A stretch of DNA of 63,826 nt, filler included, from Reclinomonas americana ATCC 50394 (GCA_048213135.1; 8 parts of 4 records of this genome joined end to end with filler, not necessarily neighbours in it), one strand, 5' to 3'; numbered from the whole stretch's first letter, positions 8,601-43,796 are shown. Made by a program: numbers and translations. The notes: generated by a model not told the origin, from the sequence alone.

Positions 8601-10621
8601 TCTCGGCACGGCCCTGCCGTGGGACGAGTCGTACTTGATCGACTCGCTGTCGGACTCGACCATTTACATGGCGTTCTACACGGTGTGCCACTTGCTCCAG
8701 GGCAACTCGTTGGACGGATCGGAGGTCGGCCCAGCTGGCGTGCGGCCAGAGCAGCTGTCACCCGAGGTGAGTGGGGAGGAGAGTTTGAGGAAAGTGCACC
8801 ATCACGATGCAGTCGGTGCTCACCTTGGCATGTCCAACAGGTGTGGGACTACGTCTTCCTGGAGGGCCCGTACCCACCACAATCTGGCATTCCGGAGGAG
8901 TCGCTGGCCAAGCTGCGTCGCGAGTTCAAGTACTGGTACCCGGTCGACTTGCGCGTCAGCGGACGTGACCTGATCAACAATCACTTGATTATGTTCATCT
9001 ACAATCACGTCGCCATCTTCCCGGAGGTGCGATCACCATGTCAACCGCCGTCTATTTTATGTCCTCATGCTTACATTGTTTCTTTGGTGTCGTGCAGTGG
9101 GCGCACCCGCGTGGTATTTTCTGCAACGGCTTCATCCTGGTCGACGGCAAGAAGATGTCGAAGAGCGAGGGCAATTTCATCACCGTCCAGAGTTTCGTGC
9201 GCCATGCGATTTTTTTCATTGTCTCGTCTGTCGCTGACTCTTTTCTTCTTGCAGACGCCGTGCGACAGTACGGTGCCGATGCTGCTCGCTTTGCGCTGGC
9301 GGATTCGGGCGATGGCCTCGATTTCGCCAACTTCCTGCCCGACTACGCCGATCGTATCATTCTGACGCTCACCACCGAGCTGGCGTTTTTGGAGAACACC
9401 ATGAAGGACCTGAGCCAGTGCCGCACGGATGACCACTTGTCGTTCTTTGACCGTGTGTTCCGCGCCGAGATTGCTCACGCCGCCGCGGCCACTCGCGGTT
9501 ACTTCTCCAAGTTGCGTGTGTTGTGGGAGCGCGTGTTTCGACTCGTCGACGCGTCGCTAATGGTGACACAGGATGGTTTTCCACGACGCCCTGCGCACCG
9601 GCTTCTACGACCTGACGAGTGCCATGAAGCGATATCTGCTCGTGTACAGTTGCGCCACCGATGCTCTCACAAAGTCAACGCCTACACAACACGACTTCTG
9701 TTGCTTATCAAGCGTGTGGTGTGCACACAGACCGCGACCTCAGCCGCATGCACCGCGACACCATTTTGCAGTACATGGAGGTGCACGCCATCCTCATTGC
9801 ACCGGTGTGCCCTCACTACGCCGACTATGTGTGGCGCAAGATTCTGGGCAAGGTATGTTGTCTCCCTGCCATGTGTGTCGCTCGAGAGAGTGTCTGACTC
9901 GTGAGCAGAGCGGCAGCGTTGTCAACGCACGGTGGCCGGAGCTGCCAGAGACCCCGGTGTTGATGGTGCAGGCAACGTTCCTCGACAAGGTGCTGCACGA
10001 CTGCCGTGTGAATATCAAGGACGTGCTCACTCGTGGCGGTGGCAAGAAGGCCAAGGTGCGTCAGTGCGCGCGCGCTCACACACACTCTCTGCTCTGGCTT
10101 TGCCTCATATTCTCACTGTGTGGTGCACAGGTGGCGGCTGACGTGCCAGCTCCCGACTGTGGTTACATTTTTGTGGCCGACACGTTCTCCGAGTGGCAGC
10201 AAATCACTCTGGAGGTGTTGAAGCGCGAGTATCATGCCAATGGCAACAGCATTCCGCGCACCATTCGCTCGACGCTGGTCAATGTGCCGGCGTTGAGACC
10301 GCTGATGCAAAAGGTCATGTTCTTTGTGGATCTGGTGGCGGTGAGTACTACGTGTGAAAGAGGTAGAGAGGGAACACAGGTGTTGGTTGCTCATGTGTGT
10401 ATGTACAGGCCGCCATTCCGGAGCGCGGCGAGGAAGCTTTCGAGAACCGCGCTGTCTTCTCCGAGCGTGAGGTGCTGGAGGACAACCGTGCATTCATCTG
10501 CCAGAGCCTGGGCATTGCGGACTTTACGGTGTTCTCCGCCGACGATGCCTCGGCGCCGGAGCCGGACAAGCGCGCCAACGCCATGCCCGGCAAGCCGACC
10601 TCGCACTTTTTTCGTCGCTGA
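5644..10621 (+). CDS. LARS1: Cytoplasmic leucyl-tRNA synthetase (assembly gap 6587-6825)
   Basis: [14 protein letters not shown] (HIGH), [20 protein letters not shown]1 motifs [16 protein letters not shown] and [36 protein letters not shown]-terminal AMPGKP. About 16 visible introns. Confidence 0.97.
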
Positions 10622-10881
10622 GCGGTCGCTGACGGCACCGCAGCATCCTAGCGAGGCCGTCGTGCAAGTGATGGAACCTGTGACAGAGCGTGGTGTAGAG
10701 GTGGTGGCCGCTGTGGAGGTGGCATCGGGAGTGGCGGCTGTGCCGTGGTGGGCCATTTTGTTTGCTGTGGTGATGGGAGGCACGGCGGTGGTTTCGCGTG
10801 TGTTGGATGAATGAATTGCATGCAGTGTAGTGATGTGGAGACTCTATACTATGACGACGACGATGCAGTGCTGCTGCGCGG

Positions 10882-15382: not shown

Positions 15383-16048
15383 NNNNNNNNNNNNNNNNNN
15401 NNNNNNNNNNNNNNNNNNNNNNNNNNNNNNNNNNNNNNNNNNNNNNNNNNNNNNNNNNNNNNNNNNNNNNNNNNNNNNNNNNNNNNNNNNNNNNNNNNNN
15501 NNNNNNNNNNNNNNNNNNNNNNNNNNNNNNNNNNNNNNNNNNNNNNNNNNNNNNNNNNNNNNNNNNNNNNNNNNNNNNNNNNNNNNNNNNNNNNNNNNNN
15601 NNNNNNNNNNNNNNNNNNNNNNNNNNNNNNNNNNNNNNNNNNNNNNNNNNNNNNNNNNNNNNNNNNNNNNNNNNNNNNNNNNNNNNNNNNNNNNNNNNNN
15701 NNNNNNNNNNNNNNNNNNNNNNNNNNNNNNNNNNNNNNNNNNNNNNNNNNNNNNNNNNNNNNNNNNNNNNNNNNNNNNNNNNNNNNNNNNNNNNNNNNNN
15801 NNNNNNNNNNNNNNNNNNNNNNNNNNNNNNNNNNNNNNNNNNNNNNNNNNNNNNNNNNNNNNNNNNNNNNNNNNNNNNNNNNNNNNNNNNNNNNNNNNNN
15901 NNNNNNNNNNNNNNNNNNNNNNNNNNNNNNNNNNNNNNNNNNNNNNNNNNNNNNNNNNNNNNNNNNNNNNNNNNNNNNNNNNNNNNNNNNNNNNNNNNNN
16001 NNNNNNTCCTCCTCCTCCTCCTCCTCCTCCTTACCTCTGCGCCTGCAG

Positions 16049-18447: not shown

Positions 18448-21400
18448 TTATTCGCCAGTCTTGCGTCGCTTCTTGCGCGGGCTGTTCATGGAGCGCGTGT
18501 CGAGAGACTCTCCATTCGGCAGACCGGAGAACTGGCTCAGGAAGCGATTGAAGGCCTTGAGTGCCAGCGGCAACTGCAACACATTTCGTGAGACGGCAGG
18601 AGAGCAAAGACACTGCGCAGGCAAGAGGATGCTGACCTTTTCGCGGTCGCGGACGTACAGTCGAATGTACCGCTCCTGGAACTGCGTGGGGATGAGCAGG
18701 CTGACCTTTTCGCGTCCAATGGTGAAGGAGCCTGTGGAGAGGGAAGGGTGAGGGGCGAAGGTAAGAAGGGGAAGGGCGGAGTGAGAGAGAGAGGGATTGG
18801 GGAAGAGAGAAGGGAGAGAGGCGCGGGGGAGGGGGAGGGTGAGGGGCGCGGGCGGAGAGAGAGAGAGAGGAAGAGGGAATGGGGTGTGAAGAGAATACAG
18901 AAAGGGAAGGGAGAGGCGCGAGGGAGAAAGAGGGAGGAGTGCAAGGAGTGGGAGAGAAGAGAGAAAGGAAGGGGAAGGGGGAGGGAGAGATTCGCGAGGG
19001 ATGAAGAGGGAGGAGGAAAAGGAGAGCAGCGGGAGGAGGGAAGGGAGCACGGAAGGTGAAGAGGGAAGAAGGCATGGAGAGACACGGGGGAAGAAGCGCG
19101 AGCCAATGCAAAAGGAAGGAGGGGATAGAGGAGACGGGAAGGAAAAAAAGGGGCAGTGAACAAGACAGCTCACGCAACGCTGATCGCGCGGACTGCTATA
19201 AAAGTGCACATTATCCACGGGGTTCTTGTCCTTCATCGCGTAGTTGATCTTGAGATCCTGCACAATCAGGTCCTCGGGTTGCAGCTGTCCGCCGCCGCCT
19301 CCCATGCGCGACAGCAGAGACGACGACGACATGCTTTGCGACGACGCCACGCCGCTGCTCTGCGAGGTGCTAATGTCGATGGCAGTCACCTGCAAGGCGA
19401 TGAGCTTGGACGGACAGCAAGGGAGAAGCACAATCTCGCACACCTTCGGGAAGTTGACTGTCATCTCGGGCGGAATAATGACCTCGTCGACAAACTTGTA
19501 CAGCTGTCGCTTGCGCAGACGCCGCAGGACGGCTTGAGATTCGGCCAGCGCCGGGTCACGCGAGCTTTCGATGGCGTTGAGGACGGAGTCGTTGAGGTGC
19601 ATGTAGCGCTCTGGGTCGTCGATGGCGTCGACCAGGCGCAGGGAGTCGTTGGCCAGGACCAGGGCGTCGGTGATCATGTATTCGATGGCCTTGGACACGC
19701 TGCGGCACGAGGGAAAGGTGAAATAGGGGAAGGGAGGGTGAGGGAAAAGGAACAGGAGGAAGGAACAGGGGGAAGGAAAAGGGGAAGGAAAAGGGGGAAG
19801 GAAAAGGGGGAAGGAGAAGGGGAAGGAGAAGGGGAAGGAACAGGGGAANNNNNNNNNNNNNNNNNNNNNNNNNNNNNNNNNNNNNNNNNNNNNNNNNNNN
19901 NNNNNNNNNNNNNNNNNNNNNNNNNNNNNNNNNNNNNNNNNNNNNNNNNNNNNNNNNNNNNNNNNNNNNNNNNNNNNNNNNNNNNNNNNNNNNNNNNNNG
20001 AGAGAGGGAGAGAGAGAGAAAGCTCACCGATGCGAATACACCTGCTTGTGCAACGTGTACCGGGTGTGGAACAACTCGTACAGATTGAACACCTCCTTGG
20101 CGTGGAAGCAGATGCGACCGCCGACCACGTGACTGAATTGCATGAGTCTGGCGACCGACAAGAAGTCAGTCGCGGTGATGACATGCTGCCATGACAGAAG
20201 CACCGAGGACTCACCGCCACGGATCAAACGACGACTTGAAACCAATGTTCATCGTGTCGCGGCTGATGTAGTCAAACTTGTCCACGTCGACACTGTTCTC
20301 CGTGTTGGCGACAAACTGGTACAGGAACTCGCGCTCGCGCGGAGGCATTCCGCTGCAGGGGAAGAGGAAATGAGAAGGAGGAGAGGAGCGCAGCACATTG
20401 GTCGAACACACGCAACGGCGATCTGTTCGAGTGAATGAGGTCCTCGAGGAAGTGAATGTCGTCCGAGTCGTAATCCAGATGGTTGTCGTCGATCAGGTAC
20501 CGCAGCATCATCTTGCTGCCGTCTTCGTGCGTCCAGGTCGATTCGGGGCTGTAGTGGAAGAGTCTCGTGAGGAGGAGAGCGGAAGGGACGGTGGCGAGAC
20601 AGAGACACTGACCGTAGTCGCCGCACGACTTCGTTGTCCCACACGTGACTGAACGGTCCGTGGCCGAGATCGTGGCACAGACCTGCGATGGGAAACTGAT
20701 GAGCACGATTGACACCATCACCTTTATGCACTGCATAGCGACAAACCAGCAATGCGGATCATCATGGCCTCGTGCTCGGTGACCTCCAGCTCCGGCTGCG
20801 ATATGCGAATGCGATCGATCCAGCGACCGGCGAGGTGCGACGTGCCTGCACCGCAACACCATCGTCAGCCAACAACGACGCCCAGTGAAGTAAACAAAGC
20901 AGAAGCAGTCGCTCACCAAGACAGTGCTCGAACCGATTGTGCGACCCACCGGGAAACACGTAGTACGAGGAACCTGCACAATAGACAGTGAGAAGAGAGG
21001 TGAAGGGAAGAGAGGAGGGAGAAGAGGACGGGTGAAGAGACGAGAAGGAAAAGAAGAGGAGAGGAGAAGATGAGAGAAGAGCAGAGAAGAGAACAGGAAG
21101 GCAAGTGAACGGCAGAAAAAAGGGGGGAGGGAGAAGATCGGGTGAGAAGAGGAGAGAGGAGAGGGAAGAGTGGAGAACAGAAACAGAAACAGAAGACGAG
21201 GAGGGAAGTGAAGAGGAAGAGGAGAGAGGAGGAGAGAAGGGAAGGGAAGAGAAAGGGGAAACGAAGGAAGAGAAAGAAGAGAACGGAGAAGAAGAAACAA
21301 GGGACAAGTCAAGTAGCGCCCCACACACCAAGCTGCTTCAGATACCGCAATCGCTGAAACTGCGGCGTATCGACAAACTCGACACACGCACTCTCCAGCC

Positions 21401-22723
21401 TACCACGCCAGTCAATCAGCCACCAAACAAAACGCACAAGAAAAGACACACAAACCTGAAATGCCCATGCACCGGATCATTAATGATCTTGTAATGCCGG
21501 CCCGACGCCGTGCCCGCCGCATACGGCGAGCAGGTCGGATAGAACGCTCCCAGTCCATCATNNNNNNNNNNNNNNNNNNNNNNNNNNNNNNNNNNNNNNN
21601 NNNNNNNNNNNNNNNNNNNNNNNNNNNNNNNNNNNNNNNNNNNNNNNNNNNNNNNNNNNNNNNNNNNNNNNNNNNNNNNNNNNNNNNNNNNNNNNNNNNN
21701 NNNNNNNNNNNNNNNNNNNNNNNNNNNNNNNNNNNNNNNNNNNNNNNNNNNNNNNNNNNNNNNNNNNNNNNNNNNNNNNNNNNNNNNNNNNNNNNNNNNN
21801 NNNNNNNNNNNNNNNNNNNNNNNNNNNNNNNNNNNNNNNNNNNNNNNNNNNNNNNNNNNNNNNNNNNNNNNNNNNNNNNNNNNNNNNNNNNNNNNNNNNN
21901 NNNNNNNNNNNNNNNNNNNNNNNNNNNNNNNNNNNNNNNNNNNNNNNNNNNNNNNNNNNNNNNNNNNNNNNNNNNNNNNNNNNNNNNNNNNNNNNNNNNN
22001 NNNNNNNNNNNNNNNNNNNNNNNNNNNNNNNNNNNNNNNNNNNNNNNNNNNNNNNNNNNNNNNNNNNNNNNNNNNNNNNNNNNNNNNNNNNNNNNNNNNN
22101 NNNNNNNNNNNNNNNNNNNNNNNNNNNNNNNNNNNNNNNNNNNNNNNNNNNNNNNNNNNNNNNNNNNNNNNNNNNNNNNNNNNNNNNNNNNNNNNNNNNN
22201 NNNNNNNNNNNNNNNNNNNNNNNNNNNNNNNNNNNNNNNNNNNNNNNNNNNNNNNNNNNNNNNNNNNNNCATCATCATCATCATCCTCATCATCCATATC
22301 CGCGCCTAAACCTCCCAGTGCTGCACTGACACTGCCACTGTCACGTCGACGCATTCCCGTCACTGCAGCAGTCGATGATTCCCCGCCTGCTGTTCCTGTT
22401 CCTCCGCCTAACATGAGCTCCACTGAGCGTTTCCGCGTGACAGTGGTGGCTTGTGCAAGACGCGCGTGTGTCGACGGCGATGAGGCGGATGAGGTTGTCT
22501 GTGAGGTGCGTGAGGGGAAGATGATGACTTCTTCTTCTTCTTCCTCGTCTTCCTCCTCGGTCTTCATGTGCTCGTCACTGGTCTCCTTTTTGTGAGTGGA
22601 GGAGACAACTGATGGTGGTTGTTGTTGTGCTGGGGGAGGTGGTGGTGGTGGTGGGATTTCGACCACGTCGTCGTCGTCGTTGTCTTCGTCGTCTTCTTCG
22701 AGGAGGCGGCGGAGTGAGGCCAT
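18448..22723 (-). CDS. SAMHD1: SAMHD1-like HD-domain dNTP triphosphohydrolase (two gaps inside; acidic low-complexity N-terminus)
   Basis: KIINDPVHGH, DTPQFQRLRYLKQLG, YVFPGGSHNRFEHCLG, AGLCHDLGHGPFSH, WTHEDGS, VDVDKFDYISRD, LFHTRYTLHKQVYSH, LRKRQLYK. The start at 22723 is inferred across a gap. Confidence 0.92.
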
Positions 22724-22827
22724 TTGTGCGTGCGTTTGGGGAGAAGAAGAAGGGGAGGGAGAAGGACAATTGAAGGGGTTTGCCTTCGATGTCGACGTCG
22801 ATATGGATCTGCAAACGTGATAGTGTT

Positions 22828-25380
22828 TTACTCAACGAGGAACACTTCGTAGTCTGCCACTTGGAACTTGTGCGACCCCATCAGTGTTGTCGTGTCACAT
22901 GCTGCACCGTCTGTGCTCAGATATTGGGACGGAAGGTTACTGAGGCTGTTGCTGTTGCTGTTGCAGTTGTCAGCCAAGCGAAGATCAGGAGTACCAAAGT
23001 TAGGTCCATCTTCACGGCTGTGAAACACAGCATTTGGCTTCTTGTCGCTCTTCAGTGCAAAGCGACGCGCAGTTGCACCACTCCACGAAGCCGAGAACAG
23101 GAAGCTAGTGCCCGATGGATCGGCGGCATAAACACCATATGCAGGAGACGTCCATGAGACAGGCGTGTATCCGCCAGAAACTCGTCCGGTCGACGACTTG
23201 GCCACGACAAGCGTCGGTCTGCAAACAGTCACTCATCCATCAGCCATCAAAAACACCCATCTCTTTCTCTCCTTCCTCACTCACTCACCCACGATTGTCA
23301 CATCGCTGGTGGAATGTGGCTGCCCTGAACCCATCTCGACTGCCTTTGAACAGCAACGTCAACTTGGGCGCCTTTCCGCCGCTGCCCCGCGCTTGCTGCA
23401 CCCACTGCAGCACCACTCGCCCATCCGCAGCATTCAGCAGATCACTGCCAAATTTTCCCTCGGCCAGCTCCCGCTCCTCTCGTTCCCTGGCGATCCGCTC
23501 GCGCTCCTCTCGTTCCCTCGCCAGCCTCTCACGTTCCTCCTGCTCCCTGGCCAGCCGCTCGCGTTCCGCCGCCTCTCGTTCCTGGATCTCTCGTACATGC
23601 ACCTCCAGAGGCTCGAGACGGGCAAGCAGCTGCAGTTGGACAAGAGGCAGAGTAAGAAAAGGAGACAAACGCAATTAACCCCTGAGTGATCACACAACAA
23701 ACCTGAGCAACACCTCTCTCGAGAACTTCACGTAGGCGCTGCTCAGCGGCGAGTTGCTGGCGACACTCGACAAGCACTCCCACACTTTCGGCAAGACGCT
23801 CATCCGTTGCTTGCCTTGCTCGTTGCTCAGCCGCTAGTCGCTCATCCGCCGCCCGCATATCAACTTGCCTCGCCTCTCTCTCCTGGACCAGCTGCTCCCT
23901 GCTCGCAGCCACCATCTGAGACAGCTCTCGCACCCGGCCATGCAGCTGTGCAAGACAAGTCAGCAGCATGAATTGGCCAGCAGCATCCACTCCATCATTC
24001 CAAACTCACCTCTCGCAGCGGTCGCTCCACTCGCAGCACATCACACACTCGCTCGTGCTCCTCCCTCTCGCCAATGATCCCACGCCATTCACACCCCAGT
24101 TCACCACCACGACATACTGTGTGTTGCAGTCGGCACTCCGTTTCTGCCACAAGAGAACAAATCAGTGTCCTTCCCTCGCTTCCTATCACTCTCACTTAAT
24201 CACACACACACACACTCTCCCTCCCTCCCTCCCTCCCTCTCTCCTTCCCTCCCTCCCTCTCCTTCCTTCTTCTCCCTCTGTCTCTCCCTCTCCCTCTCCC
24301 TCTCCCTCTCCCTCCCTCACCAAGATGCCGCTGCATCTCCGCCAATGCACACAGCTGCTCACATCCACGCGGACACACTCACATACACCCGCTCCAGCTG
24401 TGCTCCACCATCTCGCTCAGCGCCAATCGCACTCCACATCCGAGCGGACACTCGCGCAAACAGCCGCTCCACTCATGCTCCGCCGTGCGATCGAGAGTCA
24501 TCCGCTGTCCACATCTCTCGCATGCATACGGGCACTGCGTGAGGCCATGTGTGCGGTAATAGTCGCCTACCGTCTGCTCATCCACAGTGAGGACAAAGCA
24601 CAAGACAAACAACTTCATCAGACAACACAAACCATGGGTGCGTGGCACAGCGGGCATGTGATCTGTGGTGCTCTCTCATGTCAACATCATTGGCGACTTG
24701 CGGAACAACAACAACACAGAACCTTCATGTTGCTGTACATGAGCTGAAACCGTCGCTGAACCTCGTGCATTGTGCCGAGGGACGTGACTCCATCGCCACA
24801 CAGATCCGCTCCAGCCTCCGTCACATGCTCACTGTCACATGAGACCCCACAAAAGAGAGAGATGGAAGTCAGTGAACAGCTTCTCCCTTCCCTCTCATGC
24901 ACACTCACCGACACAAGTGGTGCAGCTCGCTGGCACACAGCACGAAATCCGGAGCACACAGATCCTGACAACAACACAATGTCAATGTCATCAATGCACG
25001 CACGAGAGAGAGAGAGAGAGAGAGACGACTCACAGTGCTGCATTCCCTTTCTCTCTCTCTCTCTCTCTCACTCTTCGCACACTGACCATGCACACTGGGC
25101 ACACGTATTCCTCCGCCAATGTCCGCGACTCTTGCGCGACTTGCTCCATCCACAAACGCGGTGGTTCCTTCTCCTTCTCTCCCTCCTCAGATGGAGGACG
25201 ACGATGCACAGCGCGCACCACACAAAACACGTATTGTTCCTCACTGTCGCCAGTGAGTCGCATCACTTGCTGCTCGAGAACAACCTGAGTGTCATCAGCA
25301 GGAGGAGGAGGAAGAGGAGGAGGAGCAGACCCACTGCCTTCTCCACCACTGCCTCCCACGTGCGCGTCTTCGAAACCCAT
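22828..25380 (-). CDS. RING-like + TRAF-type zinc fingers + coiled coil + TLDc protein, copy 1
   Basis: MGFEDAHV...EEYVCPVCM|DLCAPDFVLCASELHHLC; CP.GC repeats and CRGGELGCEWRG...EHERVC; coiled coil; TLDc motifs LLFKGSRDGFRAATFHQRCDNRGPTL, GGYTPVSW, SFLFS, GPNFG, YEVF. Confidence 0.88.
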
Positions 25381-25460
25381 TCACAAACTTATCATGATGT
25401 CCTGTCTCCCGTCACTCATCTGCCTTCACGACATGCAGCCCTTCTCCAAAACGAGGTGTT

Positions 25461-27833
25461 TCACTCAACGAGGAAGACTTCGTAGTCTGCCACCTGGAAC
25501 TCGTGCGACCCCATCAGCGTCGAGTCGTCAGTTACTGCACCATCAGTGCTCTGATAGTGGTACGGAAGGTTACTGGTGCTGCCGCTGTTGCTGATGCAGT
25601 TGTTCTCCAAGCGGAATTCGTTGCTGCCGAAGATGGGTCCACAAGCGGAGTTGTGGAAAGCGGCATACTGTTTCTTATTGCCCTGCAGTGCAAAGCGTCG
25701 CGCACTTGCACCGTTCCACGATGCCGAGAACAAGAAGCTGGTGCCGGATGGATCGGCGCCAAATGCGCCTTTTGCGGGAGACGTCCATGAGACAGGCGTG
25801 TATCCGCCAGAAACTCGTCCTGTCGACGACTTGGCCACGACAAGCGTCGGTCTGCACGCACACAGTCACTCATCCATCACCCACTAAGCACAGCAAGCAA
25901 CTCTCCTTCCACAATCACTCACCCACGATTGTCACATCGCTGGTGGAATGTGACTGCCTTGAATCCATCTCGACTGCCCTTGAACAGCAGCGTCAACTTG
26001 GGCACACTCCCGCCGCTGCCTCGCGCCTGCTGCACCCATTGTAGCACCACTCGCGCATCTGCCGCACTCAGCAAATCACTGCAGCTGTTAATTTTCCTGT
26101 CCGCCCGCTCCCGCTCCTCTCGCTCTCTGGCCATCCGCTCACGCTCCTCCCACTCCCTCGCCTGCCGCTCCCTTTCAGTAGCCTCTCGTTCCTGAATCTC
26201 TCGCTCTCGCATCTCCAGCGGTTTGAGACGAGCGAGCAGCTGCGGACGGAAGAATGAGGGGAGTGAAGCGCTCGATAACCACTGACATTTCACACAACAG
26301 ACCTCAGCAACGCCTCTCTCGAGAGATTCACGCATGCGGCGCTCAGCTGCCAGTTGCTCATCGGTCGCTTGCTGCTTCTGAGCCAATCGCTCCTCAGCAG
26401 CTTGTCTCGCTTCTCTCTCGTGAGCCACCATCTGCGACAACTCTCGCACTCGACCATGCAGCTGTGCAAACAAATGCAAGTCACCTCAGCATGAATGCAT
26501 GGCCAGCAACTTCCACTGTCCATACTCCAAACTCACCTCTCGCAGCGGTCGCTCCACTCGCAGCACATCACACACTCGCTCATGCTCCCCCTTCTCCCCA
26601 CCAATAATCCCACGCCATTCACACCCCAGTTCAGCACCACGACACACTGTCTGCTGCAGTCGGCATTCCGTTTCTGTCACAAGAGACCAAACATAAGTGT
26701 CATGACAGCACTTCACTCCTTCAATGCACTCACCAAGATGCCGCTGCATATCCGCCAATGCACACTGCTGCTGACATCCACGCGGACACGCTCGCATGCA
26801 CCCACTCCAGCTGTGCTCTGCCATCTCACTCAGCGCCAGCCTCGCTCCACATCCGAGTGGACACTCGCGCAAACAGCCGCTCCACTCGTGCTCCGCCGTG
26901 CGATCCAGTGTCATCTGTTGTCCACATCTCTCGCATCCATGCGGACACTGCGTGGGGCCATGTGTGCGGTAATAGTCGCCAACCGTCTGTTCATCCACGG
27001 TGAGGAGAGAGAAGCCAAGACAATCAACTCTCCATGAACACACAAACCATGGGAGCGTGACACAGCGGGCATGCAATCTGCGGTGCTCCCTCATGTCAAC
27101 ATCACTGGCAACTTGCACACATCACTCAGCAATCACACACAACCTTCATGTTGCTGTACATGAGCTGAAAACGTTTCTGCACCTCGTGCATTGTGCCGAG
27201 AGATGTGACTCCATCGCCACACAGATCCGTTCCAGCCTCCGTCACGTGCTCGCTGTCGCATGCAATCAACAAAGTGAGAGGAGGTCAGTGAATAGCTTCC
27301 TCTCTCTTCCCCTCTAATATACACAACTCACCGACACAAATGGTGCAGCTCGCTGGCACACAACACGAAATCCGGAGCACACAGATCCTGACAATGACAT
27401 GTCAATGCCATTTCAACAATACACACACACGCAAGAGTGCGTGCGTGTGCTTGTGGGTGTGTGAGAGAGAGAGAGTGAGTGAGAGAGAGAGAGAGAGTGA
27501 GTGAGTGAGTGAGAGAGAGAGAGAAACACTCACCATGCACACCGGGCATAGATACTCGTCTGCCACCACTCGCGATTCTTGCGCGACTTGCTCCATCCAC
27601 AAACGTGATGGCTGTGTCTCTTTCTCTCCCTCCTCTGGTAGAGGACGACGATGCACCGCGCGCACCACACAAAACACGTATTGTTCCTCACTGTCGCCAG
27701 AGAGTCGCATCACTTGCTGCTCGAGAACAATCTCATCTTCGGAAGCAGCAGCAGGCGGAGGAGGAGGAAGGGGAGGAGCAGATCCACTGCCTTCTCCGCC
27801 CCTGTCTCCAACGTGTGCGTCTTCGAAACCCAT
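25461..27833 (-). CDS. RING-like + TRAF-type zinc fingers + coiled coil + TLDc protein, copy 2
   Basis: Same exon-intron structure and motifs as copy 1, with a shorter coiled coil. Confidence 0.88.
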
Positions 27834-27971
27834 TCGTCACAATGTTGCCGTGGTGTCCCGTCTGTCAGGAGGTTCCTCACTCATTTGCCTTTGGTGTCGA
27901 CGTCGACATGGATCTGTTCAGCTCCGCACCGCACCCTTCTCCGAAACGACAACTTGATGCAAGATGCTGCT

Positions 27972-30105
27972 TCACTCAACGAGGAACACTTCGTAGTCTG
28001 CCACTTGGAAGCTCGGCGATCCCATAAGTGTCGTCTTGTCACATGCTGCACCGTCAGTGCTCTGATAGTAGTACGGAAGGTAGCTGCAGCTCCTGCTGTT
28101 GCTGTTGCTGTTGCTGTTGCAGTTGTTCTCCAAGCGGATATCGTTGCTGCCGAACATTGGTCCATATTCAGAGCAGTGCCCCACAGCATTTGGCTTCCTA
28201 TCGCTCTTCAGTGCAAAGCGTCGCGCGCTTGCGCCACTCCACGATGCCGAGAACAAGAAGCTGGAGCCGGATGGATCGGCGGCATGAACACCAGATGCAT
28301 GAGACTGCCACGAGACAGGCGTGTACCCGCCACACACTCGTCCCGTCGACGACTTGGCCACAGTCAGCGTCGGTCTGCACGCACACAGTCACTCATCCAT
28401 CACCCACTAAGCACAGCAAGCAACTCTCCCTCAATCACTCACCCACGATTGTCACATCGCTGATGGAATGTGGCTGCTGCAAACCCATCTCGGCTGCCCT
28501 TGAACAATAAGGTCAGTCTGGGCACACTCCCACCGCCCCCTCGCGCTTGCTGCACCCACTGCAACACCACTCGCCCATCCGCAGCATTCAGCAGATCACT
28601 GCCAAATTTTCCCTCGGCCAGCTCCCGCTCCTCTCGTTCCCTGGCGATCCGCTCGCGCTCCTCTCGTTCCCTCGCCAGCCTCTCACGTTCCTCCTGCTCC
28701 CTGGCCAGCCGCTCGCGTTCCGCCGCCTCTCGTTCCAGGATCGCTCGTTCTCGCACCTCCAGCGGTTTGAGACGATCAAGCAGCTGCAGATAAACACAAG
28801 GTATAGTGAGGAAAGATGAGATGCACTTGGATGAGCCACCAAACACAAAACAGACCTCAGCAACACCTCTCTCGAGAGCTTCACGTACGCGCTGCTCAGC
28901 GGCGAGTTGCGCGGTGCACACGGCAAGTCGCTCATCTGTTGCTTGTCTCGCCAGCAGCTCAGCAGCAAGTTGTTCATCTGTTGCTTGTCTCGCTCGTTGC
29001 TCAGCGGCAAGTCGCTCATCTGTCAATTGAAGTCGTTCCTCGACAGCTTGTCTCGCCTGCTGCTCGGCCGCCAGTCGCTCATCCGCAGCTCGCATTTCAG
29101 CTTGCCTCGCCTCTCGCTCGTATGCAACAATCTGAGACAGCTCTCGCACCCGGCCATGCAGCTGTGCAAGACAAGTCAGCAGCATGAATTGACCAAATGC
29201 ATCCACAGCCTACACACCTCTCGCAGCGGTCGCTCCACTCGCAGCACATCACACACTCGCTCGTGCTCCTCCCTCTCGCCAATGATTCCGCGCCATCCAC
29301 ACCCCAGTTCACCACCACGACACACTGTGTGCTGCAGTCGGCACTCCGTTTCTGCAACACAAGAACAAAGTGAACAAATCAGTGTCATGACAGCACTTCT
29401 CTCCTTCCAAGCACGCTCACCAAGATGCCGCTGCATCTCCGCCAGCGAGCACTGCTGCTGGCACCCACGCGGACACGCCCGCATACACCCACTCCAGCTG
29501 TGCTCCACCATCTCGCTCAGCGCCATTCTCGCTCCACACCCGAGCCGGCACTCTCGCAAGCATCCACTCCACTCATGCTCCGCCGTGCGATCCAGAGTCA
29601 TTTGTTGTCCACATCTCTCGCATCCATGCGGACACTGTGACAGGCCATGGATGCGGTAATAGTCGCCCATCGTCTGTCCATCCACGGTGAGGGGAGAAGC
29701 CAAGACTATCAACTCTCCATGACAAACACAAACCATGGGAGCGTGACACAGCGGGCATGCAATCTGTGGTGCGTCAAGTCAACATCACTGACAACATGCA
29801 TACATCAACAAACAACAGCAACACACAACCTTCATGTTGCTGTACATGAGCTGAAAACGTTTCTGCACCTCGTGCATTGTGCCGAGGGACGTGACTCCAT
29901 CGCCACACAGATCCGCTCCAGCCTCCGTCACATGCTCACTGTCGCATGAGATCCCCACAAAGAGACAGGAGGTCAGTGCACAGCTTCTCCCTCCCTCTAA
30001 TATATACACTCACCGACACAAGTGGTGCAACTCGCTGGCACACAACACGAAATCCGGAGCACACAGATCCTGACAATAACACCATGTCAATGTCATCAAT
30101 GCACG

Positions 30106-30145
<40 letters not shown>

Positions 30146-30294
30146 GTACCCACAATGCGTNNNNNNNNNNNNNNNNNNNNNNNNNNNNNNNNNNNNNNNN
30201 NNNNTTAATTAATTAANNNNNNNNNNNNNNNNNNNNNNNNNNNNNNNNNNNNNNNNNNNNACGTACGTACGAACGAGACGAGACGAGACGAGAC

Positions 30295-30332
<38 letters not shown>

Positions 30333-30373
30333 GACGACGTACTACTACTACTCGTCTCTCTACTCTTCTCTCT

Positions 30374-30417
<44 letters not shown>

Positions 30418-30714
30418 CACACTGACCATGAACACTGGGCACACGTATTCCTCCGCCAATGTCCGCGACTCTTGCGCGACTTGCTCCATCCACAAACGCG
30501 GTGGTTCCTTCTCCTTCTCTCCCACCTCAGATGGGCGACGACGATGCACAGCGCGCACCACACAAAACACGTATTGTTCCTCACTGTCGCCAGTGAGTCG
30601 CATCACTTGCTGCTCGAGAACAACCTGAGTGTCATCAGCAGGAGGAGGAGGAGCAGACCCACTGCCTTCACCATCTCCACCACTGACTCCCACGTGCGCG
30701 TCTTCGAACCCCAT
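27972..30714 (-). CDS. RING-like + TRAF-type zinc fingers + coiled coil + TLDc protein, copy 3 (first exon lies across an assembly linker)
   Basis: Same structure with the longest coiled coil. Exon 1 (~30428-30714) is separated by the N/TTAATTAATTAA linker inside a (GA)n intron. Confidence 0.82.
30161..30260. other. Artificial contig linker N..TTAATTAATTAA..N (core also at 43841, 48211, 51925, 55846, 58712, 62756)
   Basis: Identical 12-mer with stops in all six frames, embedded in N runs, seven times. Confidence 0.95.
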
Positions 30715-35684: not shown

Positions 35685-38600
35685 CTACACAGCCGCAGCG
35701 GCCGCACCTCGATCGACCTCCATCGCTGTTGGTGGCGGCTCGCCGTCGCTCTTGCTGCTACGGCGTTCCTTATCCCTGCTGCTGCGACTCGATCCAGATT
35801 CGTGTCGTCGTCGATCGCTGCTGCCGTCCTTGTCGCGATCGCGGCGGTCGGAGCTCGACTCGTGTCTCCGCTCCTTCCGCTCACCCTCCTTGTCCGTGGA
35901 CTCGTGTTTCCGCTCCTTCCGCTCACCCGCCTTGTCCGTGGACTCGTGCTTCCGCTCCTTCCGCTCACCCGCCTTGTCCGTGGACTCGTGCTTCCGCTCC
36001 TTCCGCTCACCCGCCTTGTCCGTGGACTCGTGCTTCCGCTCCTTCCGCTCACCCTCCTTGTCTGTGGACTCTTGCTTCGAATTCTTCCGTTCACCCTCCT
36101 TGTCTGTCGACTCGCGTCTCCGCTCCTTGCGTTCACCCTCCTTGTCCGTGGACTCACGTCGGCGGGAAGAGGACGATGATGATGAAGCGGTAGTAGTGGT
36201 GGTGGCACTGTCCGAGTCGCGACGCTCCTTGCGTTCGCGATTGCTGCTGGACTTCTCCGCCGTCGCCTCCTTGTGTGATCGCTCCTTGGTCGCGCTGCTG
36301 CTGCCTTCGGGCTTGCGTTCCCTGTCGCCTCCATGCCGAGAGGAGGACGAGGACGAGGTGCTCTTGCCCTTGTCTTCTCCGCGATCCCGCTCACGTTCCC
36401 GAGATGGCTGCGACGACGACGACGACGACTCCTTCACCGACTCGTCGCGACTCGACCGCCTGCGGCTCTCCTCCGAGGCACCGCTGTCCCGCGACGACTT
36501 GTGCTCCTCCTTCTTGCTGCTTGCGCCACTCTCCGTGCGCTGTCGTTTCGTTGGCCGTGTGTCGTCCGTCTCGGTGGAGTCCTTTGTGGACGATGCCTCC
36601 TTCTCCTTCTCCACCTCCTCACGTCGTCGCTTGGAACGATCACCGCCACTGCGACCTTCATCGCCCTCGCCACTGCGCTGCGTCGCGACGTCTTTCGACG
36701 CCTCCTTCTCCGCCTCCTCATGTCGCCGCTTGGAACGGTCATCGCGTTCGGCGTCCTTTGGTGTTTCCTTCTCCGTCTCCTCACGTCGCCGCCTGGAACG
36801 GTCATCGCCATCACTGCTGCGCCTCGGCGACCGTGATCGCCTCGCACGTTTCCGTGCACGCTCGTCCTCTTCGGCGGTGGCACCCTCCACCGCTGCCTCG
36901 CCTTCCGGCGCTCGTTTCCGCGACGAGCGATCGCGCTCACCACTCGACGGCTTGTCCTTCTTCCAGCCCTCGGCCACCGCCATGGCCGCCTCGACGACGC
37001 TCGCCGACGGCTTGGAATCGCCCGCCCCACTATCGTCACCAGCCGTCGGTGTCGTGGCCTCCACATTCTTTTCGCTCTCCTTGTCACGATCAGCCTTCGC
37101 GCCGCCAGTGCTGTCCCGATCCTTGCTGCTGTGGCGGCGATCTTCGCGCGAACGGCTGCGCCGACGGCGGTCACTGTCCCGATCGCGGCTGGAGCGGCGC
37201 TCGCGACTCGACTCGCGCCGACGAGGGTGCCTCGAGTCGTGTACTGGCGACCGCGACCTGGATCTCGAACGACGCGACGAATGCCGACTGTGGTAGCGAT
37301 TGCGATCGACTGGTGACGGGGATCGGTGCCGACCTCCTCCTCTGCCTCCGACAGATGACGACGACGAGGACGGTTGCCCGCCGTGCATCGGCGGTGGCAT
37401 GAATGGAGGGCCTCCGGGACCCGGATAGCGTCCACCTCCACCAGCAGCGCCACCGTAATAGTGAGGAGGCATGTGTCCGTAGGGCGGCATGGGTGCATGG
37501 TAAAGCGAAGGGTGATGGGGTGGAGGAGGTGCGAAACCACGATACGGCTGCATGGCAACATGCGGAGCATAAGGTGACACCATCGGTGCGCCGTTAGGCA
37601 TCATGTACATCGCAGGAGTCATCAGCGGCTGGCCTGGTGTCAGCGTCGGTGGTCCCACATGTTTCAGTTCTGCGCGGAGCGGCATCGCCATGGCCGAACG
37701 CGTCGCATCGTCGAGCGACTGTAGGCGCTGCGGTTTCGCCGTTGGTGCCTCCAGCAGGCCGTCCACCACCACCACCGGCTGCGGTGTCGGCGTCGGTGTG
37801 TTCTCCGCAGCGTCTTCACCGACACTCTTCAGCGCGCCGCCAGCAATCGGTGCTACCGCATCACCGTTTTGCTGCTGCTCCTGCTGTGGTGGTGTGCCGG
37901 TTCTCTCGGCCGCAGCCTCTCCGCTGCCGTGCGACGCGCCGTCCTGATGATCTTCTTCTTCTTCGTCATCCTCGTCTTCCTCTTCGTCCTCCTCAGCCTC
38001 AGCTGCGGCCAGCTGCCGTCGAGCCTCCTCTTCGGCAGCCGCTGCTCGCTCCGCCTCTTCAACTGGATCGGGTCGACCCTCTGCAAAATGTGGACGAACA
38101 ATAAACACGCCTGCCAGAACAAAAAAAACCACCACCACCAAGCTCTTTTCCCTCACTGTCCCTGTCTACGGCGAAAGAAAAATGTCGACGCTGCGATGCA
38201 AAAGGAGGAACCGCCACAGCCGGGCCACCGGCAATCATCACACACGAAACCCCACACACACAAACACATGCATGCAGTTGAACACAGAGCAACAGCGCCC
38301 GAGAAAACACATCAAGAGAAGCAGCCGATGCACCACGTGCAACTGTTATTTTCTTCCTCCTCCATCACAACCACCACCACCACCACCATCGCTGCCTCTC
38401 ACCCTGTCTCTTGTCTGACTGCAGAAAACTAGCACTAAACCCAGAAGCCAGCGCCGGTCCGACCCTCCGAGAGCGTCTGGGACGAGTGACGAGACGCCAA
38501 GGGACACCACAGAAGAAAAAACAACCCGGCCGGCGCACGCAAGGGCAACAACAGCAGGCAGCACTCCATCGATGCATGCCTCCGTATTTTATTCACGAGC

Positions 38601-40399
38601 TGCATGCCCTTGCGTGTGCCAACACGAGCTGCCTCTTCCATGGCATCCCTTGGCGACCTCGTACACTCACCATCGGCATGTGCGATCGATCCATCGTTCT
38701 TCACCCACATGCGCGCCACGATCACGAGCAGCCTACTTTCGCAGCACTTGCGGTCCATGCGCGGCACCATTATCATCGCCACCCGTCGTTCGCCGGCCCA
38801 GCCACGTACTACCACTCACTCAACTCAACTCACTTCTCTTCTTCTCCTTCTCTATCCATCTCTCTCTAGTCTGCCACTCTCACCTTGCGCAATCTTCTCT
38901 CGTGCTTTCCGGACTTGATCTCGCAGCTGCACGTATTGCTTGAGGTCGGCAACCGGGTCGATCACGGACGCACACTCTGGGCACCGACCGTCGTGCGTGT
39001 TCAAGTACTCCACAATGGCTGGCGAGTTCACAGTCAGCACAAACAAAGCACCCGCCATTCATTATCTCTCGTGCTGCACGGCGCGACTCACCAGGTCGAT
39101 TGTAGGCGTGATTGCAGCATGCTGTGCGCACCGGATCCACCATCCACTTGTGACTCAGCGGGCACAAGAACGAGGCATCGCCCACGGACGCCGCCAGCTT
39201 CTTCAGCATGCTGGTGAACTGAGATCTGTGCAGCCGGTCAACAACAACAACGAAGGAGACACACAACAAAAGGCGGGGCGACGCAACTCGTCGGCAATCG
39301 GCTTCATTTGCACATTGTCGGTGCCGTCGCCGGTCTTGCTCAGATACTTGGTGGGCACACCTTTGGTGTTTTGCTTTCTCGGTGCACGCTCTGTGCGCAG
39401 CTGTTGCATGCTCTTTTTCATTTGTGTACGCGCCTCACGAACCATCCTGTGTACAACAAACGGCACGTGAGCACTGCAGTCCATTCCCCTCACCTCCGGG
39501 ACCACAAACAGAAAAACAACGCAACGTTCGATGCCGCTGACTGTGCTCCCTGCTCATCATTCGCATCATCTCATCCTCCGTCAGCTGCACTTGCGGCTGC
39601 CCGGGCGCCGACCAAATCGTACTTGCCGCCGTCGCAACCGGCGCTGCAGCCAGTACCGTCGTGGTGGCGCCAGCAGCGCCAGCGCCACTGGATGCACCAC
39701 CGCCACCCGTCGCCGCCGACACACTCGACGAGCCCATGGTGGCAGACGCCTGTCCTCCTCCTCCTCCCCCCATCCCTCCGTGCGTGGCTCCAGATGCCGC
39801 TGCTGCTGCCGCAGCGGCCGCAGACGACGACGACTCCTTGGGTCCAGTCGACGAGCTGTGTCGCGTGTTAGTTGTAACGTCAATTGTCAATCATCCCCTC
39901 ACCAAGAAGAGGAGCAGCAACGCAACGCTGTGAGAATCATCGAGCCACGACCAACCGGCCTGGTACGCGGAACACGCTTCACCACCACGCAGATGTTGCG
40001 AGGAATCAGTGACGTATCGCGGTCAAACTCTGCATTGCACCACACCAAAAAAAAAAGTGAGATGACCGACATGCTTCCCACTCACACTCGCCACGCGCAC
40101 ACACACAAGCACACGCACACAGCACGCCTCGCACAGCTCTCTCTTGCACACACACAAAGATGAGGCACACCTTCACCAGTCTCCGCATGTGTAAACTGCA
40201 AGTCAAAGTCCGTGGAGCGACTCATGCGCCGCTTCTCCATCACCAACCGCTTCAACTCGCCCACTGAGATGTGACTGGACGACACGGGAACCTGATCCGC
40301 CACCGTCTCTGCAGCGCGCGCGCGAACATGTCACCCACACTCACACATTCTCCAGCGATCAGCCCACTCACCTGCGAAGAAACGGAAGAAGACCGACAT
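35685..40399 (-). CDS. RBBP6: RBBP6/Mpe1-like protein: DWNN ubiquitin-like domain, RING/U-box, Pro-rich and RS/charged tail
   Basis: MSVFFRF...HISVGELKRLVM...DFDLQFTHAETGEEF.RDTSLIPRNICVVVKRVP (DWNN); LTEDEMM; KGVPTKYL; FLCPLSHKWMVDPVRTACCNHAYNRPAIVEYL...RCPEC; long RS-rich last exon. Confidence 0.85.
35857..36155 (-). repeat. 39-bp coding tandem repeat (~7.5 units, KERKHESTDKAGER-type)
   Basis: Repeated GACTCGTGCTTCCGCTCCTTCCGCTCACCCGCCTTGTCCGTG-type units in the RBBP6-like last exon. Confidence 0.9.
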
Positions 40400-40541: not shown

Positions 40542-43500
40542 ATGAGTGTGCGTCCTCCGCGACTGGACTCGCACGATCCAGTGGCGCGCGCTGACTCGAC
40601 CAACTTTGCCTTTCTCCTCGTCAACGTTGCGCTCTCAACACTCTGTATTCTCCTCTCTATCTCTCTGCTCACTCTTTGCCTCCATGTGTGTGTGTGAGAG
40701 CAGAACGGGGACGCGCGTCTGTCGATCAACGTTCCAGACACGGCGGTGTTTCGCGATGGGCAGCTGGTGGCCTGGTTCTTTACCTCGAAAGTTGCGCGTG
40801 TTAATATTGCCTCTCTTTTATGATCGTGTATTGATCTGCGTGTGCAAGCAGCGTGGTCATGTGATGCGTCATCGCGCGTCTGCGCTGGTGGTCTCCAGCG
40901 TCAACAGGGAGTTTGTGAAGCAGGCGCTGAGACAGTCGGGAAATTCGCGGAAACTCATTGCTGCTCTTCGCAAGGGTGCGTGCGTGCGTGTAGGTTGCTG
41001 TGTCTTTACCTCTGTGTCTCATGTGCCACGCGGTGTGTTAGATCACTGCCGACCGAGTCTGCTGCTTGGTGAACCGTTTCATGAGCTGATTGATGGGCTG
41101 GAGCACTCGCATCTGATGGGATCGCGGCGACCGGAGAATACGGTGTTGTCGCTGACGGTGCAGCGATATGTGAGTGGAGTGCATCGGTATGTGACGGCGT
41201 ATGAGCGTGAGGAGATTGACGATCAGTACTTTCGAGTGCGTGGCGAGAAGACCGAGGTGGAGGAGTGGTGGGATGTGACGGGCGGGCTCGGAAGTGGCGT
41301 GGGTAGCAAGCGACGAGCTGGCGTGCCGCGATGGGAGCCCATGCGCGACGATGATGCCACGTTTGTCGACTTGCGGTCACAGACGCTGCGCATTGTTGAC
41401 TTTGTGCGGCGCGCTCACGATGTGGATCTGGTGCGATTGGAGTGCGAGTTTGTCGCCGCGTTCGATGGCAAGGTAGGGCAACTTGGAGTGACTGAGTGAG
41501 CGATCGATGACAGTGTGCTGATCGATGCCTTGCGACGCACAGATCTACTTGACCTCGATTCAGGATTTTGCGTGGATCGACGACAGCAATCCGGGTCGGC
41601 CACTCATTCGCACCATGTCGCAGCTGCACGGCTACACCAACTCCACGTTTCACTACCTGGACAGTGATCCACCAGCACCGTCGCAACCCACCGATGCCAT
41701 GAGCATCACCACTCCACTGACACCACTCAGCATCACGTGGGGCGACGCCGACGAGGAGCAACAGCACGGGAGTGGTGGTGAGGAGGCGTCCGACGGCATG
41801 CTGGCGCGCAGTGCCAGCTTCGCCATGGTCGTCAATCGCACTCGTGCCGTGACGGCGCAAGCGAACCGCGATTTGCACGCTCGCATGCGACGCGACGGCC
41901 TGCACGCCCCGCCGTCGCCCGTCAGCAGTCCTGGAGGCGTCTCATCGTCGGACGACGCCATGTCGGTGCTGGCCGATTTTCCGATTCAGATCGGCGTCAA
42001 TCCGACGCAGATCGACAAGTGGGCGCACCAGCGCACACAGGAGCGGCGCATGGAGATCAAGTTGCCGCACTTTGTTCACAACTACTCGAATCTGGGGCGA
42101 CCGGCGTCGGCGCGCAGTTCCACTCAGCAGCAATTGTCGTCGCGATCCAAGGTGCGCATCGGCACCTGTTTTTTTAATGATCTTGCTGCTGCTAACCCTC
42201 ATGACTCTGCACAGACCGCGTCGAACGGCGATGTCGCCTCAGCCACGGCACCGGCTTCCGCACGGGGAACCACACCGAGACCACCGTCGGCACCGAAACC
42301 GAAGCGCAGCGCGCGAGGCAACTCGGCGACAAGTCGTGCGCGCGAAGTGGTGGCCACGGCGCGTGCACACTTGCGGCAACCGCGTGCGGCCAAGGGCAGC
42401 ACCGCGATTCTGGTGCGGCAAGATCGGCATGTGGCCGATTTGCAGTTTACGGCCCGAGTGCGTGCGCACGCCGAGCGTGTGTACTCGCGCATCATCAACG
42501 ACTATCACAACTACTCGCATCTGCATCCGCTCGGCGGTGGCATGGAGAAGCCGCCGGCGCCGCCAAAGAAGGAGACACCACGGAGAGAGTCGTTTGCCGG
42601 TGTCGAGGGCGAGGAGCTGTCGGAGGAGGAGTATACGGACTCGGAGTCTGGCGGTGGCGATGACGCGCTGTCGAATGATTCGACACCGATTGTGCGACAC
42701 TTGCTGCGCAACTCGGGGCAGGACATGAGCACGACCGTCGCGGCGGCCGCTGCCGCTATGCGAGACCTGGCCGCATCGCCCGCCGACAGTGCGACACTGG
42801 AGATGATTCACGACGACGACAGCGAGACGAGCTTTGGCGAGCCGGTGGATTCGCAGCTGAGTGACAACACGGTGGCCGTGGAGGGTCGTGGCGGCGTGCG
42901 ACCACCCTCCGCCAAACCACCCAGTGCTGGTCGGCGACCGACGCCATCCGCCGAGGGTGCCCCGTGGCATCGCAGTGGCCTGTCGGTGGTGGTTCCGGAG
43001 AGCGACAGCTTTGAGAACAGCCGCAGCGTGCCGGTGCACTGGCAGGCGTCGACAACAGCGCTCTCACCGCCGACTGGAGAACTGCCTCCGCAAGTCGAAC
43101 CAAGTGCTCCTCCCAGTGGATCACCGCCTGCTGGAGGTCGCCGACGCGCCGCAAGTACACTCGGCAGTGTTGGGCCGCGTGTGGACAGCACTCGGCCGGG
43201 GACGCGATTGCGCTCCAGCACGCAGTTCTCTCGCAAAGCGCCGGCTGCGTGGGAGATTGAGTTGGCCAGCTCGCATCCACCGTCGCCCACCACCGCGCCC
43301 ATCACCTCGGTTCCCTCACGGACTCGGCGCACGTGGCGCGAGCCACTGGCGACGCCACCCAGGGCCATTGATCCGACCACCCGAGCGCCGGCACTGTCGG
43401 CTCTTGCGCAGGGCTTGCGCGAGCGGCCGCTGTCTGCGCCACCGATGCCGCCGGTGCAACCCAAGCCGCCCGCTGCGAGCGAGACGCATGGCCGATCTGC

Positions 43501-43796
43501 CGTCGCCATTGCGACCGGCAAGACCAGCAAGACCACCACCACGACATCAACGGCAATGACAGCGACAGCTACAGCAACAGCAACGGCAGGAACGACGACA
43601 ACAACAACAACGGGCGGATGCATGGCACGGAGACCAACAATGTCGGCGCTGGACACGTCGCCTGAACCGACGACGCCAGTGCACGTCACCAAGGGCCGCG
43701 CGCTCAGCAGTCTGCTGACTCGCATGTCGCAGTCGGCCGCACGTTCATTCGGCCTCTCGCCAACTTCGTCGTCGTTCTCCACCGTATCACCGATGT
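40542..43796 (+). CDS. Uncharacterised protein with possible ATP-grasp-like N-terminal domain and long S/P/T-rich tail (3' truncated)
   Basis: INVPDTAVFRDGQLVAWFFTSK|RGHVMR...VQRYV...LECEFVAAFDGK|IYLTSI, then a >2-kb low-complexity exon running into the linker. Confidence 0.55.

Follow-up and report, generated by a model that had tools for sequence, protein, structure and literature searches.

TRAF2 and TRAF6 are laid out as a RING and five zinc fingers, and in the TLDc proteins of solved structure the N-terminal part is of the LysM/GRAM, TBC or myristoylated kind. To our knowledge, nearly all studies of TLDc proteins, in animals and yeast, treat them as partners of the V-ATPase. Each of the five mouse TLDc proteins associates with the V-ATPase, and residues G815, G845 and G896 of NCOA7 are required for V-ATPase pull-down, most such residues being buried residues of the fold (PMC8608904); in Entamoeba invadens, 210 genes with the Pfam domain PF07534 (TLD) are labelled 'unknown function' and are enriched among stage-regulated genes (PMC4053983). 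Here we analyze a stretch of 63,826 nucleotides from Reclinomonas americana ATCC 50394 (GCA_048213135.1), hereafter the window, in which positions 22828-30714 of the minus strand hold three tandem genes. In their predicted spliced form, a single reading frame connects a front rich in zinc ligands with a long helix, followed by a TLDc fold.

Within the region 22828-30714 (G+C content of about 49-57%), open pieces on the minus strand recur three times, delineating three head-to-tail paralogs, A, B and C; the extent of the array and its head-to-tail arrangement, as given by the original prediction, proved right. Copy A was read base by base, and its exon borders were transferred to B and C via DNA alignment; the exon models are therefore sequence-based and the splice sites predicted. 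Copy A (22828-25380, minus strand) comprises nine exons (25380-25087, 24964-24909, 24831-24723, 24662-24633, 24573-24321, 24143-24010, 23945-23703, 23629-23289 and 23218-22828) with 616 codons, including one in-frame stop. Copy B (25461-27833, minus strand), the sole copy without a lesion, encodes 583 amino acids in nine exons (27833-27534, 27387-27332, 27252-27144, 27077-27048, 26986-26734, 26673-26537, 26461-26303, 26239-25923 and 25851-25461), and copy C (27972-30714, minus strand) likewise has nine exons (30714-30427, 30069-30014, 29938-29830, 29763-29734, 29673-29421, 29351-29218, 29161-28856, 28783-28443 and 28374-27972), with an open frame of 639 amino acids. Across the three copies, all 24 donors are GT and all 24 acceptors are CAG (for copy B, 16 of 16 splice sites are canonical), the intron phases are conserved, and the introns are 56-177 nucleotides long, except for intron 1 of copy C. 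From the stop codon of one copy to the ATG of the next, the spacers measure 80 nucleotides (B to A) and 138 nucleotides (C to B). A tblastn search with the spliced copy B as the query detected no further copies in the window.

Some details of these models and of the spacers deserve mention. For exon 4, a length of 42 nucleotides was rejected in copy C, where it breaks the frame, and a CAG acceptor 12 nucleotides downstream restores it; in A and B, judging from the sequence, a 42-nucleotide exon 4 is possible and would add 4 residues (587 amino acids in copy B, with exon 4 starting at 27089). Intron 5 of copy B (26674-26733) consists of 60 nucleotides, in frame and free of stops, and its retention would insert 20 residues, three of them Cys, between fingers. 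The two spacers (25381-25460 and 27834-27971) and the sequence 22724-22827 are homologous to one another as a mosaic, whereby the C-to-B spacer contains stretches matching the B-to-A spacer and also the sequence 3' of copy A. This mosaic homology suggests that the duplication unit included the spacer.

The TLDc domain of copy B maps to 25464-26080 on the minus strand (the second half of exon 8 and exon 9, with the intron 25852-25922 included). The open reading frames (ORFs) covering the last exon match PF07534 in all three copies, with scores of 45.8, 45.6 and 43.2 bits for A, B and C, respectively, at a cut-off of 24.5 (expectation values, E, of 8.4e-12, 9.8e-12 and 5.1e-11); the in-frame exon 9 of copy B gives an E of 2.4e-11 (44.3 bits vs the same cut-off of 24.5), and exon 8 shows a weak match to the N-terminal portion of the model. 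A profile of 47 sequences of the subfamily retrieved 11 sequences from PDB at E ≤ 0.01, all of them TLDc, the best being mEAK-7 (3.2e-11). With a 47-row alignment, the AlphaFold model of exon 9, which leaves aside roughly the N-terminal quarter of the domain, reached a mean predicted local distance difference test score (pLDDT) of 96.5 and a predicted template modeling score (pTM) of 0.90. In the Foldseek comparison of this model, the ranks up to 15 (13 rows) are all occupied by NCOA7, mEAK-7, Skywalker, OXR2 or Oxr1 (probability 1.00, template modeling scores of 0.54-0.68), and from rank 16 on, the probability is at most 0.06. Identity to the solved TLDc domains is 12-18%, and the paralogs retain the glycine and Glu residues that hardly vary among the TLDc domains of the subfamily. 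The TLDc identity of the C-terminus, as claimed originally, is solid, judging from the profile matches at E of about 1e-11, the pLDDT of the model and the exclusively TLDc composition of the top Foldseek rows. The companion claim, that TLDc replaces the MATH domain, was borne out as well: the C-terminus is TLDc, and Pfam detected no MATH domain in a scan of 16 ORFs and 10 exons.

Upstream of the TLDc domain lies a stalk, encoded by exon 7 and the 5' half of exon 8 (26081-26461 in copy B, minus strand), in which Glu and Arg together account for 42% of the residues. Across the copies, the stalk is 113-162 residues long, with 42-44% Glu and Arg, and the differences in length correspond in the alignment to insertions and deletions of repeat-like units. 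The stretch containing at least 65% Glu, Arg and Lys extends over 47-56 residues (47 in copy B). Coiled-coil propensity was evaluated using our own heptad score in comparison with shuffled sequences, and the maxima are 0.78, 0.65 and 0.65, with the 95th percentile of the shuffled sequences at 0.68, 0.57 and 0.62, respectively; the highest-scoring heptad region straddles an exon junction. Of the predicted coiled coil, then, the Glu/Arg-rich helix is present, but the heptad signal rises only just above the shuffled sequences, and the 47-56-residue stretch, judging by its composition, may be a single alpha-helix instead of forming a coiled coil.

At the other end of the protein, a RING-like Cys/His cluster was recognized in copy B by pattern reading (27144-27548, minus strand; the end of exon 1 together with exons 2 and 3, introns included). 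The pattern is C-x2-C-x10-C-x4-H-x2-C-x2-H, with the last pair being either C-x-D, eight residues further on, or CPLC in exon 4. The C-x-D ending yields a layout of a RING and five fingers: a regular expression detects five tandem C-x2-6-C-x11-12-H-x3-4-C fingers in the spliced copy B, the first of which is formed by the exon 4 CPLC (26537-27077, minus strand; exons 4, 5 and 6, introns included). The finger ligands in exon 5 are all invariant in the three copies. When two queries were placed among their language-model neighbours (Atlas), the ten best family-bearing neighbours of each belonged to the zf-TRAF family or clan (0.93), and the three best rows shared 173-179 and 156-167 of 256 features. 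A single-sequence AlphaFold model of the 150-residue finger read-through of copy B had a pLDDT of 41.3 and was unusable. Pfam detected no B-box in any exon or ORF scanned. As a separate observation, the finger with the CERC...H....C pattern gives a sub-threshold match to the ubiquitin-binding finger zf_UBZ in all copies (18.7-23.1 bits vs a cut-off of 25.6), located in exon 5 of B (26735-26986) and of C (29422-29673) and in an ORF of copy A (24379-24675); judging by this resemblance, the finger could bind ubiquitin rather than play a purely structural role.

Comparison of the copies with each other indicates that these exons encode proteins. Identity between the copies is 81-84% over the whole unit and 84-89% in the exons; the introns are 73-80% identical over the alignable columns and are far gappier (317-405 gap columns). 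The rates of non-synonymous and synonymous substitution (dN and dS), estimated by the Nei-Gojobori method for whole genes, are 0.100/0.419 for A-B, 0.080/0.272 for A-C and 0.110/0.477 for B-C, i.e. dN/dS ratios of 0.24, 0.29 and 0.23 at dS of 0.27-0.48. Such ratios imply real coding sequence rather than chance frames, and the estimates are indicative of purifying selection on every exon. The constraint is strongest in the RING and finger exons (dN/dS of 0-0.26): exon 2 shows no non-synonymous change in any pair, and in exons 3 and 4 the ratio, where computable, is 0.06-0.16. Constraint is weaker in the last TLDc exon (0.38-0.48), and only exon 1 of the A-C pair has a higher ratio (0.72). Within a single pair, dS is uneven among exons (for A-C, 0.08 in exon 1 vs 0.55 in exon 5), and intron 8 is identical between B and C at 67 of 68 positions; this unevenness, together with the near-identity of the intron, is suggestive of patchy gene conversion.

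Two of the copies carry candidate lesions. In exon 5 of copy A, an in-frame TGA (24379-24381, minus strand) replaces an Arg codon of B and C and, as read, would truncate the protein inside the zinc-finger array, ahead of the stalk and TLDc. Given that the downstream exons of A remain constrained relative to B and C, this stop is recent, polymorphic or an assembly error. In copy C, a Phe codon (30430-30432, minus strand) turns the CPVC of A and B into CPVF, so that the first RING-like pair is left without its second Cys, which is the second ligand of the cluster. Copy C is also crossed by a contig-join linker (30161-30260; 44 N, TTAATTAATTAA, 44 N) within intron 1. Its exon 1 accordingly comes from a neighbouring contig and exons 2-9 from another, and the length of this intron in the window need not be the true one; the order and orientation of exon 1 nevertheless fit exons 2-9. 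The original prediction mentions neither the stop in A, nor the Phe codon in C, nor the linker.

Relatives of the array in sequence databases were found through the TLDc exon. An exhaustive phmmer search with this exon against 1.84 billion representative sequences gave 1148 matches at E ≤ 0.001; among the 150 matches listed, identities were 29-46%, none of them close. A Pfam scan of the 70 longer proteins (at least 330 amino acids) among these best 150, with the 80 shorter ones left out, found TLD in 70 of 70, BTB in 8, BTB_2 in 11, BACK only in one and a protein kinase in two. A RING and/or B-boxes occurred in 3 of the 70, namely, P0005 (RING, kinase and five TLDc), P0076 (sub-threshold RING models, two B-boxes and two TLDc) and P0116 (B-boxes, fn3 and TLDc). 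Another match, P0046, a 516-residue 'hypothetical protein' of a different organism, has Sina-type fingers followed by a helix of about 230 residues and then TLDc; the fingers reach 25.5 bits against a cut-off of 32, and the precomputed Pfam annotation lists PF21361 and PF07534. Word-indexed searches against longer proteins yielded, for the TLDc exon, a single match among 2571 candidates (a BTB-TLD protein) and, for the finger exon, none among 7, and the finger region of P0046 retrieved only itself among 778 candidates. In the metagenome scans, none of the 76 pattern matches of the finger alignment and none of the 411 of the TLDc alignment was confirmed. Within the collections searched, the array represents a lineage without close relatives, as far as sequence comparison goes.

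We consider it somewhat probable that the array encodes a lineage-specific ubiquitin-ligase-like scaffold of the TRAF/TRIM-type plan, with TLDc as the target-binding head, in the form of three recent tandem duplicates. The case for TLDc selecting the target is that it occupies the head position here and follows BTB, B-box and RING modules elsewhere. Under such a mechanism, the N-terminal zinc-binding, RING-like module would recruit a ubiquitin-loaded E2 (ubiquitin-conjugating enzyme); the five C2HC fingers, whose spacing is TRAF/SIAH-like at the motif level only, would form a rigid array; and the Glu/Arg-rich stalk would space the parts and probably oligomerize the protein. TLDc, which takes the place of MATH in TRAFs and of PRY/SPRY in TRIMs, would act as the target-binding head and bring its bound partner to the ligase end; this could be the V-ATPase, bound by every TLDc protein studied so far, or another lineage-specific target. 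The array itself would be subject to birth-and-death evolution with patchy gene conversion, copy B being intact, A having acquired a nonsense codon recently, and C having lost a RING ligand.

A number of results weigh against this scaffold reading, most of them at the zinc-binding front. The spacing of the RING-like cluster is non-canonical (ligands 3 and 4 are separated by four residues, and ligand 6 is a His), the identity of the last pair of ligands is ambiguous, and no hidden Markov model (HMM) or other profile match to RING was obtained, the module being split over three or four exons and never present in one query piece. For the fingers, Pfam zf-TRAF gave no match at E ≤ 1 either on the exons or on the 150-residue read-through of copy B; phmmer and hmmsearch comparisons of the finger region with PDB sequences returned nothing relevant; and the finger exon aligned to P0046 with an hhalign E of 0.32. 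In a local phmmer comparison of the first 300 residues with the 150 TLDc matches, including the RING-bearing ones, none fell below an E of 1. The Atlas recognition values, 1807 and 2063, are under the 2300 mark, and the shared features of the second query are below 170. At the other end, a profile built from the TLDc exons of the three paralogs matches no solved TLDc protein among PDB sequences, which places this TLDc far from the V-ATPase binders. With regard to the putative oligomerization, the heptad signal is barely above that of shuffled sequences, and 47-56 residues resemble one helix of the ER/K type. Two of the three copies, A and C, have possibly disabling changes. The original prediction of a RING-like Cys cluster and TRAF-type fingers accordingly holds at the level of pattern: the Cys/His arrangement is present, with non-canonical ligand spacing and a Cys lost in copy C, and five C2HC fingers with TRAF-like spacing are found, but the zf-TRAF HMM, PDB and profile searches were negative. 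The TRAF-type label of the fingers is not confirmed, and only the ligand spacing and the language-model neighbours speak for it.

The weakness of the RING-like cluster would also fit a non-catalytic scaffold, in which a degenerate cluster does not engage E2 and the protein, like RING-less or RING-dead TRAF relatives, serves as an adaptor that gathers TLDc-bound partners. Apart from the non-canonical spacing, the lack of a match to any RING model and the tolerated Cys loss in copy C, the sub-threshold zf_UBZ signal in the finger exon of all three copies is consistent with such an adaptor. However, constraint within the gene is at its strongest in the RING exons (exon 2 free of non-synonymous changes, and low ratios in exons 3 and 4), which argues for a working zinc module, and we regard the purely adaptor role as unlikely. 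Somewhat less credible still is a dedicated V-ATPase regulator, in which TLDc would bind V1, as do mEAK-7, Oxr1 and NCOA7, the ligase end would modify the pump or its neighbours, and the tandem copies would be divided among different compartments or conditions. That mEAK-7, a protein found in V-ATPase complexes, is the nearest solved relative by profile, and that the glycine and Glu positions of the subfamily are preserved, is in line with a regulator of this kind; yet identity to solved TLDc domains is low, the key residues of NCOA7 are mostly fold-determining and hence uninformative with respect to binding (PMC8608904), and the TLDc gene numbers in some protists, such as the 210 of E. invadens (PMC4053983), are too many for one pump.

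Should the family be in the process of being lost, with no copy currently functional, the stop in A, the lost ligand in C, the lack of a close relative (46% top identity among the matches listed) and the two empty metagenome scans would all be expected. The overall dN/dS of 0.23-0.29 at dS of 0.27-0.48 runs counter to decay, as do the intact copy B and the persisting constraint on the exons past the stop of copy A, so that we consider this scenario quite improbable. We attach hardly any credence to an artefact of gene modeling, whereby the zinc-finger part and the stalk with TLDc would belong to separate genes. Although the models are derived from genomic sequence, the gap between exons 6 and 7 is a 56-75-nucleotide GT...CAG intron of the same phase in all three copies, exon 7 lacks a start-codon context, and the spliced frame is open throughout in B and C.

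Beyond the ligase-like scaffold proposed for this locus, a broader conjecture can be entertained, if only doubtfully: the ubiquitin ligases of microbial eukaryotes might widely employ TLDc as a head for target recognition, so far unrecognised as such and mounted on TRAF-like, TRIM-like and BTB/cullin-3 chassis, with the present array as a fast-turnover sensor family. Were this the case, the array would be a functional counterpart of the TRAF-MATH and TRIM-SPRY sensors of immunity and stress, with the TLDc exon evolving fastest, and the sensors might watch V-ATPase-bearing organelles perturbed by pathogens or stress. The literature searched gives no reason for the placement of TLDc behind RING, B-box, BTB or TRAF-like modules in protists, or for the occurrence of TLDc genes by the hundreds in some of them, and a three-copy locus with an intact member offers a compact test case for TLDc as the substrate-binding end of a ligase. 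Were TLDc to act in this way, it would be recast as a general recognition module and the TRAF/TRIM design principle extended; otherwise, the array would be an ordinary lineage-specific domain shuffle.

The surroundings of the array show several other features. A fourth head-to-tail gene, at about 21416-22723 on the minus strand, begins 104 nucleotides past the stop of copy A and is unrelated to A-C; its product is acidic and Pro/Ser-rich, with no Pfam match, and the gene is interrupted by the N gap 21562-22269. With spacers of 80-138 nucleotides between four consecutive genes, one may ask whether the promoters are very compact or transcription is polycistronic. Elsewhere in the window, we found ORF pieces of a cytosolic-type leucyl-tRNA synthetase (8969-10814, plus strand; the class I core and the RagD-binding domain of LARS1), an RGS-domain ORF (5091-5546, plus strand; E of 1.5e-7, 32.3 bits vs a cut-off of 23.9), an ORF that matches the Nse2 MIZ/SP-RING finger below threshold (38883-39434, minus strand; 23.7 bits vs a cut-off of 27) and a 452-residue ORF with tetratricopeptide (TPR) repeats (57309-58667, minus strand). 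Three long G+C-rich ORFs without a Pfam match (35685-38165, minus strand, 826 residues; 41522-43796, plus strand, 758 residues; and 53827-55449, minus strand, 540 residues) may be lineage-specific genes or chance frames. Rfam gave no match in the window. The linker in intron 1 of copy C (30161-30260) is one of seven identical linkers with stops in six frames, the others being at 43797-43896, 48167-48266, 51881-51980, 55802-55901, 58668-58767 and 62712-62811, and most of the joined contigs break at simple repeats. The window is thus a pseudomolecule of joined contigs, in which gene order across the joins is to be trusted only after checking. In all, four further N gaps of 151-708 bases are present (6587-6825, 15383-16006, 19849-19999 and the aforementioned gap just downstream of copy A).

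With regard to novelty, literature searches for TLDc and TRAF as whole words and for a BTB-TLDc domain architecture found no publication, and neither did a search for TLDc with B-box, RING or coiled coil, as judged by titles and the starts of abstracts, find any on such fusions. The claim of an undescribed architecture is consistent with these results but has to be qualified because the databases hold P0046 as well as RING/B-box-TLDc and BTB-TLDc proteins. The predicted expansion of the family is not established by the three copies observed, of which A carries a stop codon and C lacks a zinc ligand.

Compared with TRAF2 and TRAF6, the array has the same order of modules as far as the stalk, i.e. 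a RING-like cluster, five C2HC fingers and a long helix, but TLDc stands where TRAFs have MATH/TRAF-C, zf-TRAF is unmatched, and the RING ligands are non-canonical. The TRIM family has a B-box between RING and coiled coil, which is not matched here. With mEAK-7/TLDC1, NCOA7, OXR1/Oxr1p, OXR2 and TBC1D24/Skywalker, the array shares the fold, the Pfam family and the C-terminal position of TLDc; it differs from these solved proteins in the divergence of the domain (12-18% identity) and in the RING and finger modules in front. P0076, P0116 and the 19 BTB/BTB_2-TLDc proteins resemble the array in having a ligase or cullin-adaptor module and an oligomerizing part before TLDc, whereas the front modules of these TRIM-like and BTB/KCTD-like fusions are B-box and BTB, and none has the five-finger array; the papers searched contain no characterization of any of them. 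The closest architecture found is that of P0046, which has TRAF/SIAH-like Cys/His fingers, a long helix and, at its C-terminus, a TLDc domain 42% identical to exon 9 of copy B. Outside TLDc, however, the similarity is not significant (BLASTP E of 1.3, in addition to the hhalign result above), P0046 has a markedly different composition, rich in Lys, Asn and Ile, and its N-terminus is cut off, so that the two fusions may be independent. The anatomy given by the original prediction, with its order of modules in one frame, is essentially upheld. The designation 'TRAF-like' holds as a description of design and not of family membership, there being no MATH and no finger HMM match. The array is a new form of a known modular design, and its combination of domains is unstudied but not unique.

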